Shown here: in pieces, positions 9,001 through 12,000 of the stretch
How the letters are laid out: every line of letters begins with the position of its first letter
Position numbering within the stretch: position 1 is the first letter of the stretch
Assembly (NCBI GenBank): GCA_965246885.1
Contig: OZ251992.1
Coordinates: 64,001-128,000 of the forward strand
Origin: Abditibacterium sp.
Lineage (GTDB): Bacteria; Armatimonadota; Abditibacteriia; Abditibacteriales; Abditibacteriaceae
Reading direction: 5' to 3'
DNA length: 64,000 bases
Program-made: the position numbers

Positions 9001-12000
9001 CCAATTCGCACCAAAAGTCGGCGAGTGGCGCCCAACTGAAGAACGTTGGCGGCAAGTTGACGAGCAGATTCATGGGATTGGGCGCGGGGCGCGGCTATTT
9101 CACCTCGATATCGAACTCGACCACGCGCTTTAGCCCTTGCGCGTCCTCGACGGCGAGGGTCAGGCGCGCTTTGCCGGTTTGTCCGGGCGCGGGAGACAGC
9201 GAGATTTGGCGGGTGCAGGGCAGTCCCCACCGCTCGAAGTGGCCGCTCTCGACCTTGATGCTCGCGGCGGGGAACAAAGTGGGGTTGTCGGACGTGGCGC
9301 TTACGCGCAGCGCGTCCGGCGGGGTGCTGTCGTCGGCGACGTTAAAACTGCTCTTCCAGAGTTCCCCGACTTTGAGGTGTTCGCCATAGGACGTGAAGTC
9401 AGTGGTGGGCAGGGCGTTGGCGATGCCGCTCCCGTCGGCGTTCGTGATTTTAAGCGAGTTGAGGTTGTAGGGCCGCTCGTCGGGCACGGTGAGAGTGAGG
9501 GTGTTCAAACCCGCCGCGAGCGCAAGCAGGGCGGGCGCGGAATCGGCGAAAGTGTTCTCGTTGGCGGTTGCGGGCACGTTCACAGTCTGAAGCGGCCCGT
9601 CGTTGACGGAAAACCCGATGGTTTTCGGCGCGTTCTTGAGCGTCGCGGCGCTGATTTGCAGCCGATAATTCCCGGCGCGCGGCGCGCGCAGCAGGTAATC
9701 GAGTTGCGCGCCTTTCGAGAAGTAACCGAGGAAAGCCACGCGCTCCAAAGGCTTTGGGCGTCCGGGATAGATGCGGGCGTCCACCTCGCCGGGCACGGCT
9801 TGGCCGATGGCAAGCGGGGCGCGCGGCATTTGGCGGGCGGCGTCGAAGCCCAGTTCCTTGGGCTGCGCCAAGTCGCGCAGGTTGTCGGTGATGCTCCATG
9901 TGCCGTAGGGCGACTCGAACTTGCCCGCGCCAATGACGAACCAGTTGAATTGGTCGCCGCCTTTGGAACTCCACATTCGCAGATAATCCACCATGATGTC
10001 CTTCATGCGTGGGTCGAGCGAGGCGGCTTTCTTGGCGGCGATGTTGTTCGCGCCAAAAGTGTCGGGGCCGCCCTCGTAAGCCGCCATTTTTAAGCCGTAT
10101 TTGGTGGCGAGGGTGGCGATTTCGTCCAACGTGGTGCCGGTTTTGTAGTGGTCCACCGAGGCTTGCAGCGCGTTCAACACGTCGTCTTTGCGCAGGTCTG
10201 TGCGCGCGTCGGCGCCTTGGCCGTTGCCGCACGCGAAGTAGGGCGCGACCGCGAGCGCGGCAAAGTAGCTGCTCGGCGGGCCGTAGTTCTTGCGAATATA
10301 GGCCAACTGGTTGGCGAAACGGTAGGGCACCAACTGATACGCCAAAACGGGCTTGACGCGCGCCCCAAACGAGCCGGGGCCAAACGCCCGGACGAACATC
10401 TGACCGACTTCGAGTGCCCGTCGCGCGTAGCGGCGGTCGCCCACCGTAACATCGCCTTTGTCGCCGTCGTAAGCGAGGTTTGAGTTGCCCTGCCCTTTAA
10501 CTTCCTCGACCGCCGCGTCGCGGTTCATTCCCGCTTGCAAGAAGCTGTCGTTCCACACCTCGTTCGAGTATTCGACCCACACCCGGAGACCCGGCTTAAG
10601 CTGCGCTTTCACGAGGGCCGCGAGGTGTTGAACGTAATCATCGGATGCCATGACCGGCACGTTGAGCCAGAGGTCGCAGTTCGTTTGGTTGGCGAGGGCG
10701 ACGCAGTATTCCCAGCAGATGCCCTTTTGGTTCTCGAAAAGGTGCGGTTCCTTGTCCCAGTTGACCTTGATCCGTTGGGAGATGCGCGCGGTCTGCGTGG
10801 CGTCGGTGGGGAGGGAGCGATCCGCCCACTCGCGTTCGAGGTTGCCGTTGGTGGCGTGCCAGTCCATGAAACGCAGCACGTTCGGGCGGCGCGCTTTGAT
10901 GAGCGCGAGATACTCTTCCGAGAAAAGCGGCGGATGGAGCGCGTCGTAGCCGGGGCGAATGACGCGCAGTTGCTTGACCTGCCCTTGCGTCGCGTGAAAA
11001 TCGAGGCGAAAGAACGTCACGCCATCGGGCACGACAACCTCGTAGCTGTTGGTGCCCGTCGCGGCGTCGAAAGAAGGTTTCCCAACGGTGCTGGAACTGC
11101 CGAACACCGTCAGTCGCGTCGTTCTTGGCCCAACGAACGAGACGTGGTATACACCGGGCGTAATGGCTGCCCCGTTGTCGGACAGAATGACGAAGAAATC
11201 CTCCGTCGGCCAGCCGCTTCCGTCGGTTTTGGGCGCTGGCTCGCCCGAAGCGAAAGTCTGAAAGCCGCGCGTGGTCTTCACCATGTCGGCGAAGGCTTCG
11301 TCGCGCACCCAATCAATCTCGCCGTTGAGTCCGGCGCCCAGTGGAAGGGTCGGTGCCCCTGCCAACTGGGGCGCCGCCGTGAGCTTGGGCGCCGCGTGAG
11401 CGCATCCGGCGCCCAGAGGCAGGAGCCACAGGGACAACACGAGCAACCGGAACGACGCGGTGCGTCGTAGTTTAAAAGGTGTGGGCATGAGAGGGGGGAA
11501 AGAAACTTCGTCGAAGGCGTGTGTCACAAACAAACAGCCCGCAACACGTGTTGCGGGCTGTTGGAAACGGGACTTAGTTCATGCCCTGTTGCAGCACGCC
11601 CAAGCGGTCGAGCAACGGTTGCGGCGCGGAGCCGGAAGCGGTGTTTCCAAACGCTGTGGTGTTGGATATATTCCACAAGTTGAGCGGCGTGCCGGTGGCA
11701 AGAGGTTTGAGCGCCTTGACGTGGCCATCGGCGAACAAGTAGTTGCTGGTGCCTAAGTGGTTTTGCAAACGCAGGCTGGCGACATCAGTTACACCCTCAC
11801 CTTGGTTGGCGTAGTCGCTAACGCTGTTGGTCTCGTAGACCATGATAGTTGTCGCGGAGTTATTTAGCTCAGATAATGCGCATAAATACTCTGAGGTCGC
11901 ATAGTAACCACCAAAGATGAGCTTGCCTCCATAAGAGTTAGTCGCGTCGTGTTCGGTGTTGTACTCGCCGGAGACGACTTGGTAAGAAACGGGAATGGTG

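Follow-up and report, generated by a model that had tools for sequence, protein, structure and literature searches.

The window analysed here, a stretch of 64,000 nucleotides from an Abditibacterium genome (positions 64001-128000 of contig OZ251992.1), carries on its minus strand a gene, g00063, for an exported multidomain protein located downstream of a regulator gene and a pseudopilin gene. The offset of 32000 between window and contig positions used in the preliminary description was wrong, since the window begins at contig position 64001 and the true offset is 64,000. Two other genes discussed together with g00063, namely g00035 and g02265, are not part of the window, which contains only one of the three. 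Read along the minus strand, the features of the locus are as follows.

12381..13529, minus strand: sugar-type regulator of 382 aa, GntR winged-helix domain and LacI-type periplasmic-binding-protein-like sensor domain (Pfam GntR 2.4e-12, Peripla_BP_3 5.3e-8)
11574..12344, minus strand: DUF1559 pseudopilin of 256 aa with prepilin N-methylation and C-terminal H-X9-DG motifs (Pfam SBP_bac_10 3e-15, N_methyl 1.1e-7)
11533..11562, minus strand: terminator-like hairpin between pseudopilin stop and g00063 start, stem of 13 pairs, 8 of them G-C, then TGTTTGT
9095..11488 (stop codon included), minus strand: g00063, exported multidomain protein of 797 aa, from reading of the ORF, with no Pfam or NCBIfam match
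11402..11488, minus strand: predicted signal peptide of g00063, residues 1-29, ending LPLGAGC, as read from the sequence
10934..11356, minus strand: conserved N-terminal segment (PLGAGLNGEIDW...FADMVKTTRGF) with a beta-rich stretch after it, residues ~45-185 (alignments A1 and A2)
9833..10933, minus strand: putative catalytic (beta/alpha)8 domain, core region at residues 186-552 (alignment A5, 49 sequences)
10550..10573, minus strand: EYSNEVWN motif with proposed acid/base E310 (translation and alignment)
10067..10078, minus strand: YEGG motif with proposed nucleophile E472 (translation and alignment)
9419..9811, minus strand: CBM6/CBM35-like carbohydrate-binding module, residues ~560-690 (family profile against solved modules)
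9098..9391, minus strand: C-terminal Ig-like domain, residues ~700-797 (Pfam matches in family members)
8078..9073, minus strand: D-isomer-specific 2-hydroxyacid dehydrogenase of 331 aa, starting 21 nt past the g00063 stop (Pfam 2-Hacid_dh_C 1e-44)

The open frame of g00063 extends from 9095 to 11533, and its ATG at 11488 yields a product of 797 aa that begins with a signal peptide. A TTG at 11533 was rejected as start codon because it falls within the stem of the hairpin. Judged by its sequence, the signal peptide is possibly that of a lipoprotein. The tripeptide [AS]GC occurs at the equivalent position in four of the eight closest family members listed (P0002-P0005), and the -3 position of the candidate lipobox LPLGAGC of g00063 is non-canonical.

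The regulator finds best matches of only 35-41% identity in five genomes of the same genus. The genome has 62 DUF1559 matches, among them the pseudopilin, which is also assigned to NCBIfam TIGR02532 and TIGR04294. Hairpins similar to the one described here follow the pseudopilin gene in 14 of 22 regulator-pseudopilin strings as compared to 54 of 400 control spacers. According to crude ORF calls, the ten strings with downstream genes on the same strand continue with a recognisable glycan-degrading protein (six cases), biosynthetic genes (one) or family-less proteins (three). The proposal that such strings hold a slot for a glycosidase describes no more than a tendency. In view of the strong hairpin between the pseudopilin gene and g00063, co-regulation of g00063 with its string should not be presumed. 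The dehydrogenase gene is probably co-transcribed with g00063. Its NCBIfam matches all lie under the curated cut-offs, no ortholog of more than 37% identity was found in five genomes of the genus, and it is not a conserved partner of the g00063 family. No close ortholog of g00063 itself was found in the 12 genomes of the genus that were searched, and a metagenome scan for close orthologs with their context yielded three distant loci only. The position of g00063 in a regulator-pseudopilin string was not encountered again, the 870 nt covered upstream of the closest relative (L001) containing no pseudopilin ORF. A second family copy in the genome is situated among housekeeping genes, and neither copy lies inside a cluster for exopolysaccharide (EPS) synthesis or export.

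The product of g00063 had been called family-less, and indeed no Pfam match at E<=0.05 and no NCBIfam family was found for it. A recount of its homologues reproduced the earlier figures exactly, with 6,749 cluster representatives at E<=1e-3 and 802 at E<=1e-30 of 1.84 billion, and 4,128 at E<=1e-10. The first of these figures also takes in proteins matched through accessory domains alone, such as a 4,501-aa protein with 31 matching stretches, the best of which corresponds to residues 714-795 of g00063. A search with the catalytic-motif pattern gave at least 586 family loci among 185,579 species genomes, and the family spans more than 10 phyla. RefSeq and UniRef label members either "hypothetical protein" or "CBM6 domain-containing protein", and no description of the family was found in the literature on new glycoside hydrolase (GH) families with CBM6, GH190-198, GH148, EPS-operon glycosidases, floc and exosortase clusters, DUF1559 with glycosidases or Abditibacterium, nor by way of its peptide motifs. 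The ESM Atlas holds no model for g00063 or its homologue P0086, and the feature neighbours there are all unnamed.

The presence of a CBM6-like module, noted previously, was confirmed by the family profile, which matches 17 distinct solved sequences with CBM6/35-type or related binding modules in addition to 8zvk_A. Matches to solved CBM6/35 modules have E values of 1e-10 to 7e-4, and those to the modules of beta-agarase 2cdp, CsxA 2vzp, Xyn30D 4qb1, 2w47 and AaBglC 8zvk span approximately 100-130 residues at 1e-19 to 1e-6. Several of these solved CBM35 modules bind uronic acids. The match to AaBglC (8zvk_A, E 2e-22), previously listed next to that of the CBM6 part, involves only the two CBM6-like modules of that protein (profile positions 533-663) and not its catalytic domain. 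Pfam CBM_6 is detected in 15/40 family members, whereas the module of g00063 itself lies below the Pfam threshold, being too diverged for the model. The Ig-like tail is matched by Pfam Big_9 in 8/40 and by Cadherin_5 in 4/40 members, and residues 545-797 recur with 36-40% identity on other proteins of ~690 aa in relatives, while present only once in this genome. PA14, fn3, CBM4_9 and CBM35 modules are found in other family members, as is typical for glycan-active enzymes, and short members consist of the putative catalytic domain alone.

The motifs E..NEVWN and YEGG reported previously are near-invariant in a set of 78 diverse relatives from two deep clades: E306, S308, N309, E310, W312 and N313 are each present in 78/78, and Y471, E472 and G474 each in 77/78. 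Also invariant in the core are R206, W274, P278 and Y417 (alignment A5, 49 sequences, and the 78 relatives). In total, some 20 polar or aromatic residues, three glutamates among them, are invariant across phyla in a domain of about 500 residues. The pair N309-E310, with E306 at position -4, fits by motif the acid/base signature of clan GH-A, and E472 is preceded by a hydrophobic stretch. The sequence evidence supports assignment of g00063 to a large, unnamed family with acidic motifs of clan GH-A type and a CBM6/35-like module.

Resemblance to clan GH-A enzymes (GH5, GH39, GH79) lies in the strand-end E-x-x-N-E pattern, also evident in the consensus of GH5 (YELxNEP) and GH39 (WEVWNEPN), in a later invariant glutamate, and in export together with CBM6/35-type modules. 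The family order R...N-E...Y...E...W parallels the GH5 invariants R110, H152, N186-E187, H246/Y248, E274 and W308, with Arg, Asn/Trp and Tyr positions in the same sequence. On the other hand, the family has longer loops between conserved positions, including ~35 extra residues after the N-E motif in its consensus, and a beta-rich N-terminal segment of ~140 residues ahead of its core, which may represent the first barrel strand with an inserted beta-sandwich. Profile comparison with hhalign gave no relation of family profiles A2 and A5 to GH5 (alignment A3; 0.46% and 0.18%, respectively, with 10/30 ORF picks left out of the GH5 alignment as probable wrong frames) or to GH39 (alignment A4; 0.38% and 0.39%, with 1/20 loci lacking an ORF candidate). 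A control comparison of GH5 with GH39 at similar depth gave 96% (E 3.9e-9). The sole stretch aligned with GH5, non-significant at a probability of 0.2-0.5%, places E472 on the glutamate of GEFG. Comparison of the family profile with single sequences, namely the genome's own GH5 and g02265, returned nothing, and that with the g02265 family 0.8%. None of 40 family members matched any glycosidase Pfam model at E<=0.1 or a catalytic NCBIfam model. Proteins of the phylum gave only weak and partial matches to PF03662 (GH79), and the profile comparison covered GH5 and GH39. Against the PDB, catalytic-domain profile A2 gave one chance match (E 0.99) and A5 none at E<=10. Of the earlier reading as a clan-A glycosidase with a CBM6 module, the clan-type acidic motifs and the module stand, and the fold is putative; with no link to GH5 or GH39 by hhalign (0.18-0.46%) and no solved structure found, the case for clan GH-A is one of motif logic.

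Taken together, we consider it fairly probable that g00063 encodes an exported, possibly lipid-anchored glycosidase of three modules, of the retaining, clan GH-A type, acting on a complex heteropolysaccharide. The gene, its domains at the level of sequence, the conserved residues and the gene contexts are observed, whereas fold, catalytic roles, mechanism and substrate are inferred, the catalytic roles by motif resemblance. The three modules would be the catalytic domain of the unnamed family, the CBM6/35-like sugar-binding module and the Ig-like tail. The catalytic domain would most likely operate as a retaining glycoside hydrolase in which E310 of the strand-end motif E-Y-S-N-E serves as acid/base and E472 of A-Y-E-G-G as nucleophile, while R206, N267/W274 and Y417 would line the -1 subsite. 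Its substrate would most likely be a complex heteropolysaccharide of bacterial or plant origin that is probably both acidic and acetylated, and a bacterial EPS is favoured.

Indirect and non-uniform clues on the substrate were obtained from the gene contexts of relatives, which differ between clades of the family. The g00063 protein falls in a clade of 19 rows (SH-aLRT 99) which includes a betaproteobacterial clade of nine. Seven of these nine have genes for polysaccharide synthesis or export within three ORFs, which vary by locus (Wzy_C, Poly_export, flippase, WecG, GT1, GT2 and exosortase), and Wzy_C lies directly upstream of the family gene in four betaproteobacterial loci. The other two (L004 and L009) have housekeeping neighbours. 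Catabolic surroundings occur as well. In another relative (G017), a pseudopilin gene is followed by those for the family member, GH28, a protein bearing CBM35 and a SASA acetylesterase. Elsewhere, family genes are accompanied by a GH106-like protein, GHL6 and an ABC permease (L033), by an MFS transporter and an MR_MLE dehydratase (L039), or by a GntR and Peripla_BP_3 regulator (L217). The placement of proteobacterial relatives in EPS clusters hints at the natural target of the family. Glycosidases encoded within exopolysaccharide synthesis operons are exemplified by PslG (GH39) and BcsZ (GH8), and the seven betaproteobacterial relatives resemble them in adjoining genes for Wzy, Wza-type export, flippase, glycosyltransferase or exosortase. 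Unlike PslG and BcsZ, g00063 belongs to a different sequence family and follows genes for a sugar regulator and a pseudopilin, and a role of its family in EPS processing is suggested by gene context. Betaproteobacterial members may act on the polymer made by the same cell, trimming or releasing it in the manner of PslG; in this Abditibacteriota genome, a foraging role under the GntR/LacI-type sugar regulator would be expected.

The enzyme may instead be a glycosidase for cell-wall glycans of plants or algae (beta-glucan, xylan, mannan or pectin side chains), with the EPS-cluster location in proteobacteria as a separate specialisation, a reading that we regard as somewhat unlikely although several observations agree with it. 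Other regulator-pseudopilin strings of the genome hold GH5 with GH44, GH9, GH13, GH26 and pectate-lyase-fold proteins; hemicellulases often bear CBM6/35 modules, and the solved matches include those of Xyn30D, a GH26 mannanase and an agarase; and the string with GH28 and acetylesterase suits pectin as well as EPS. However, the nearest well-sampled clade is linked to EPS synthesis genes in 7/9 loci, and the family is frequent, by record titles, in freshwater Burkholderiales, Planctomycetota and Cyanobacteria, which are not known as degraders of plant walls.

A glycosidase as proposed here could also already belong to a numbered CAZy family without Pfam model or structure, for example as a distant member of GH148 or in a family defined after 2023. 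According to PMC13063451, the numbered families of CAZy extended to GH195 or beyond by 2026. GH191 (GH114-like) and GH195 (GH99-like) were set aside as of a different kind, as far as their descriptions go. GH148 is presented in PMC5725463 as a clan GH-A family with beta- and gammaproteobacterial homologues, whose members are described as always being extended between strand 4 and helix 4, and whose member EngU has a glutamate four residues ahead of the acid/base (E235/E239). The g00063 family, for which clan GH-A is likewise proposed, shares the glutamate at -4, and by our reading of its consensus the ~35 extra residues after the N-E motif would lie at the same site after strand 4. In contrast, the catalytic motifs of EngU, the one GH148 sequence compared, are given as INNEN (acid/base) and VTEYN (nucleophile) (PMC5725463) as against SNEVWN and YEGG here, and EngU differs at the positions of Y471 and G474. 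Moreover, dbCAN is cited as reporting GH148 in the form GH148+CBM4+GH148 (PMC11535203), whereas the g00063 family appears to have no inserted CBM4 or comparable module (a CBM_4_9 match occurs in 1/40 members), and the partial similarity of EngU to Pfam GH42 noted in PMC5725463 has no counterpart in any of 40 family members at E<=0.1. By this comparison of motifs and modules with the published description of GH148, membership of g00063 in that family appears unlikely. Within the reach of HMMs, the PDB searches rule out those CAZy families for which a structure has been solved, and neither the uninformative database names nor the literature point to an existing family, so that prior numbering in CAZy appears unlikely overall.

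More improbable still is that the protein is a carbohydrate-active enzyme other than a hydrolase, i.e. a transglycosylase, lyase or other polymer-modifying enzyme acting during EPS export. The position directly behind the Wzy polymerase gene in four loci and the lack of a detected profile link to known glycosidases would suit such an activity, but the two invariant glutamates of N-E and Y-E-G-G, 162 residues apart, are typical of retaining hydrolases, and many members are stand-alone, exported, CBM-bearing proteins in catabolic contexts. A non-catalytic surface protein for glycan binding or adhesion, with residues conserved for binding only, would agree with the CBM-like module, the Ig-like tail, the possible lipid anchor and the lack of a sequence link to any enzyme family, but is very improbable given that ~20 invariant residues in ~500 exceed what binding modules usually keep and that short members comprise the putative catalytic domain alone.

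It is tempting to combine the proposed glycosidase activity with the contexts of its relatives in a broader reading, to be taken as tentative, of a new GH family beyond a profile link to clan GH-A and with two connected roles in EPS metabolism, namely trimming or release by cluster-encoded enzymes and foraging. In freshwater betaproteobacteria, and possibly also in Phycisphaerae, the enzyme would be a built-in trimming or release component of EPS clusters of the Wzx/Wzy and exosortase types. Abditibacteriota, Armatimonadota and Planctomycetota would consume the same polymers by means of exported, CBM-bearing copies. Bdelloid rotifers, too, may have acquired copies of the family gene.

The family is large (802 representatives at E<=1e-30), yet has no name, model or solved relative. 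With new GH families appearing at roughly five per year by the account in PMC6442616, this kind of discovery is familiar; what sets the present case above routine is the size of the family and its link to EPS clusters. New here are the EPS genes near 7/9 members of the betaproteobacterial clade and the string containing GH28 and acetylesterase genes. Should members prove to be EPS glycosidases, they would offer a handle on polymer trimming or release in Wzy- and exosortase-type EPS production by floc- and biofilm-forming freshwater bacteria, and on the use of the EPS matrix as food by slow-growing oligotrophs such as Abditibacteriota. Genome annotation would then also gain a model for the family, and biofilm dispersal a candidate enzyme.

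The two genes outside the window, g02265 and g00035, had likewise been described as family-less, and again no Pfam match was found at E<=0.05. The proposed GH39-like nature of g02265 was upheld by hhalign (95.5%, E 1.6e-8, 307 columns), with AINEPD aligned on WNEPN. For g00035, the suggested esterase function gained indirect support only, from the invariant motifs G-Q-S and D-x-x-H and from its placement in a GH26 operon.

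The genome carrying g00063 comprises 3.56 Mb, and the window corresponds to positions 64001-128000 of its contig C1; the preliminary description gave the coordinates of the gene correctly, and its offset of 32000 was wrong. GyrA encoded in the window shares 90-91% identity with Abditibacterium/Abditibacteriota records, which places the organism in Abditibacteriota. The open frame extends over 9095-11533 on the minus strand and, from the ATG at 11488, encodes 797 aa with an N-terminal sequence, MPTPFKLRRTASFRLLVLSLWLLPLGAGCAHA, that reads as a signal peptide. A TTG at 11533, located within a hairpin stem, was rejected as the start. 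Since the [AS]GC closing the signal peptide is common to four of the eight closest family members listed (P0002-P0005), the product is possibly a lipoprotein. The following features surround the gene:

12381-13529, minus strand: GntR-HTH + Peripla_BP_3 regulator, first in the same-strand gene order
11574-12344, minus strand: DUF1559 pseudopilin, between regulator and hairpin
11533-11562, minus strand: terminator-like hairpin of 13 pairs, between the pseudopilin gene and g00063
8078-9073, minus strand: D-2-hydroxyacid dehydrogenase, beginning 21 nt past the g00063 stop codon

About 7 kb from g00063, a family-less 322-aa ORF (20429-21397, minus strand) precedes the gene of a SASA-type acetylesterase (577 aa; 18653-20386, minus strand) that carries a Ca-tandemer-like repeat.

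That g00063 matches no Pfam family at E<=0.05 and no NCBIfam family was confirmed, and its homologue counts of 6,749, 4,128 and 802 representatives were reproduced by exhaustive search. The count of 6,749 nevertheless includes proteins having only accessory domains in common with g00063, such as a 4,501-aa protein with 31 matching stretches, the best of which covers residues 714-795. For the catalytic domain alone, patterns drawn from its three motifs matched at least 602 stretches in contigs of one genome per species, and tblastn upheld at least 586 of them. In a word-indexed search with g00063, 776 of 8,000 scored proteins matched at E<=1e-5, nearly all named "hypothetical protein" where a name was given; RefSeq and UniRef names of family members are "hypothetical protein" or "CBM6 domain-containing protein", and the 26 neighbour clusters in the ESM Atlas are all without name. 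Eukaryotes, mostly Rotifera, make up 68% of one Atlas cluster of 666-aa proteins that scores 0.93 against a family member; the cause may be transfer into bdelloid rotifers, or else contamination.

Conservation was assessed on 78 catalytic domains, i.e. g00063, 76 of 80 related loci (the other four were left out for short coverage) and a second copy from the same genome. Residues R206, W274, P278, E306, S308, N309, E310, W312, N313, F316 and Y417 are invariant; N214, W221, R224, Q318, Y471, E472 and G474 are kept in 77 domains, and E260 and N267 in 76. The family tree has one deep split, into halves of 22 and 56 rows (SH-aLRT 100 each), and intermixes Planctomycetota, Pseudomonadota, Armatimonadota, Bacteroidota, Chloroflexota, Cyanobacteriota, Verrucomicrobiota, Myxococcota, Acidobacteriota and Bacillota. 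L001, the closest relative of g00063 with 67% identity across 470 columns, falls with it in a 19-row clade (SH-aLRT 99) that includes a 9-row betaproteobacterial clade (SH-aLRT 100).

A function of g00063 as an enzyme is plausible. The invariant Arg, Asn/Trp, N-E, Tyr, Glu and Trp occur in the same order as the invariants of GH5, and E-Y-S-N-E shares the form E-x-x-N-E with the strand-4 consensus of GH5 (YELxNEP) and GH39 (WEVWNEPN) alignments assembled from genomes of the phylum. Read by eye, residues 60-550 would form eight hydrophobic-strand/amphipathic-helix alternations, with a beta-rich segment at about 100-185 as a probable early insertion. None of 40 family members matched a glycosidase Pfam model at E<=0.1 or a catalytic NCBIfam model. 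Against the PDB, the catalytic-region profile A2 gave a single chance match (E 0.99) and the barrel-core profile A5 (49 sequences) none at E<=10. With hhalign, the family scored 0.46% (A2) and 0.18% (A5) against GH5 and 0.38% and 0.39% against GH39, whereas GH5 against GH39, the control at comparable depth, reached 96% (E 3.9e-9) over 213 columns in which the two catalytic residues are both aligned. By this sequence measure the family is more distant from GH5 and GH39 than those two are from each other. The preliminary description, largely real as a whole, had assigned g00063 to clan GH-A; this placement is not given by the sequence-profile evidence.

CAZy families with a solved member are ruled out, as far as HMMs can see, by the catalytic-region profiles against the PDB, and GH191 and GH195 are of other kinds as far as their descriptions go. 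The sole structure-less family of clan GH-A compared was GH148, by its printed description. In the parts of the literature that describe it (PMC5725463, PMC6442616, PMC11535203), the catalytic residues of the GH148 founder stand in the motifs INNEN and VTEYN, an insert is always present after strand 4, similarity to Pfam GH42 is partial (PMC5725463), and dbCAN reports the arrangement GH148+CBM4+GH148 (PMC11535203). In the g00063 family, in contrast, the motifs are SNEVWN and YEGG, no more than about 35 extra residues follow strand 4 and a GH42 signal is absent; set against this description the family is unlikely to be GH148. Should it prove truly unclassified, it would add a new and sizeable family to the glycosidases, which as a discovery is of a familiar kind.

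The structure 8zvk_A had been listed as a match beyond the CBM6 part, but the 40-sequence family profile reaches it (1e-19) only via profile positions 533-663, which align with the two CBM6-like modules of 8zvk_A, and the 17 other solved sequences that the profile reaches are all matched via the same CBM6/35-like region. Accessory domains among the 40 members are CBM_6 (15), CBM_35_2 (10), CBM_35 (9), Big_9 (8) and PA14 (3). The CBM6-like and Ig-like tail of g00063 (residues 545-797, 9095-9856, minus strand) recurs at 36-40% identity on proteins of about 690 aa in three relatives (G013, G024, G017), matched via this tail only, and is present once in its own genome, which suggests module shuffling.

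The most useful addition made here is the tie of the family to exopolysaccharide synthesis clusters. When neighbouring ORFs of relatives were called crudely (longest first, non-overlapping) and scanned with Pfam, polysaccharide synthesis or export genes were found at most three ORFs away in seven of the nine loci of the betaproteobacterial clade, with Wzy_C directly upstream of the family gene in four of these seven:

L002: Wzy_C, Poly_export, GT2, ManC
L005: GT2, Acyl_transf_3, carrier protein
L006: Wzy_C, Poly_export, flippase, WecG, GT1
L011: Wzy_C, GT25, hexapeptide transferase, WecG, GT1
L019: exosortase EpsH, WecG
L050: Poly_export
L058: Wzy_C, GT1, WecG

The remaining pair (L004 and L009, variants of about 1,030 aa) has housekeeping neighbours. 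Biosynthesis-type contexts are also found in Phycisphaerae (L017 and L018, PMT_2 and LptF/G upstream) and Rohdeia (L065, exosortase nearby). Other relatives lie in catabolic contexts:

L033: GH106-like, GHL6, ABC permease
L039: MFS, MR_MLE dehydratase
L069: AraC, NPCBM/PA14
L217: GntR+Peripla_BP_3 regulator

In the same-family relative G017 (L264, G017:C12:217000-236500, 6859-15457), a pseudopilin gene is followed by a family member (645 aa, 37% identity), a GH28-like protein, a protein of 696 aa that bears a CBM35-like module (37% identity to g00063 residues 558-797) and a SASA acetylesterase. The likely substrate suggested by all these contexts is a complex heteropolysaccharide, probably acidic and acetylated; in polymer producers the family may play a PslG-like role.

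The tie of g00063 itself to its pseudopilin string is loose. Its four-gene block looks like a strain-specific accessory unit, because the catalytic domain has no match above 36% identity among 12 same-genus genomes searched, orthologs of the regulator (best 35-41%) and dehydrogenase (at most 37%) are absent from five such genomes, L001 has no pseudopilin ORF within 870 nt upstream, and the second copy (G000:C1:2036959-2038389, minus strand; L204:7930-9720; 596 aa, E 5.6e-76, CBM-less), placed in the other deep clade, lies among housekeeping genes (homoserine dehydrogenase, a PLP enzyme). Genome-wide there are 62 DUF1559 matches; 49 of the 60 listed could be placed on ORF calls, giving 44 strings, 12 of them immediately behind a GntR+PBP, LacI or AraC regulator; a thirteenth is the g00035 string, absent from the ORF calls. 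Same-strand genes follow in 10 of these 13: in six a protein recognisable as glycan-degrading is present (Sortilin/BNR, GH13, pectate-lyase fold, GH9, weak GH2_C, GH26), in one a sugar transferase and GT4, and in three family-less proteins (g00063; g02265; PhyH, then a 1,024-aa protein). The proposed glycosidase slot behind the pseudopilin is thus a tendency and not a rule.

Hairpins behind pseudopilin genes are a wider pattern in this genome: of 22 strings with a 36-300-nt spacer, 14 have one after the pseudopilin gene (stem of at least 10 pairs, no more than one mismatch), compared to 54 of 400 random same-strand spacers, and a T-rich tail is often present; examples in the window are 11533-11562 (minus strand) and that after the pseudopilin gene 53998-54645 (minus strand). 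Such hairpins may act as attenuators or 3'-end stabilisers setting the pseudopilin-to-enzyme ratio. A second string in the window (29047-46411) comprises:

29047-30357: GntR+PBP regulator
30881-31873 and 32452-33195: two pseudopilins
33344-34108, plus strand: PhyH dioxygenase
three large ORFs: 1,024 aa, family-less; 1,255 aa, NPCBM_assoc only; 988 aa, weak GH5 + CBM9
44072-46411, minus strand: convergent family-less ORF of 779 aa

PhyH (phytanoyl-CoA dioxygenase family) genes adjoin pseudopilin genes in three strings, at 33344-34108 (plus strand) and 52787-53812 (minus strand) in the window and at G000:C1:2486994-2487911, and one also lies near the Fimbriimonas family member L026.

For g02265, with neither a Pfam family nor a PDB match, the proposed GH39-like nature is supported: its 19-sequence family keeps A-I-N-E-P-D and T-E-F-N, and the alignment of this family with GH39 (95.5%, E 1.6e-8) spans 307 columns and takes in the C-terminal beta-sandwich region. 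The gene g00035 has 17 close relatives (52-79% identity), with no PDB match at E<=1 and no esterase Pfam match. Its invariant residues G417-Q418-S419 and D626-x-x-H629 resemble the SASA/SGNH catalytic blocks. Its operon (G000:C1:30000-44000, L125) encodes LacI, two pseudopilins, GH26+fn3+CBM4_9, GH26+PA14, g00035, a CBM9 protein with weak GH42 similarity and GH32. This looks like a mannan-type utilisation locus, and acetyl-mannan esterase would be a reasonable assignment for g00035.
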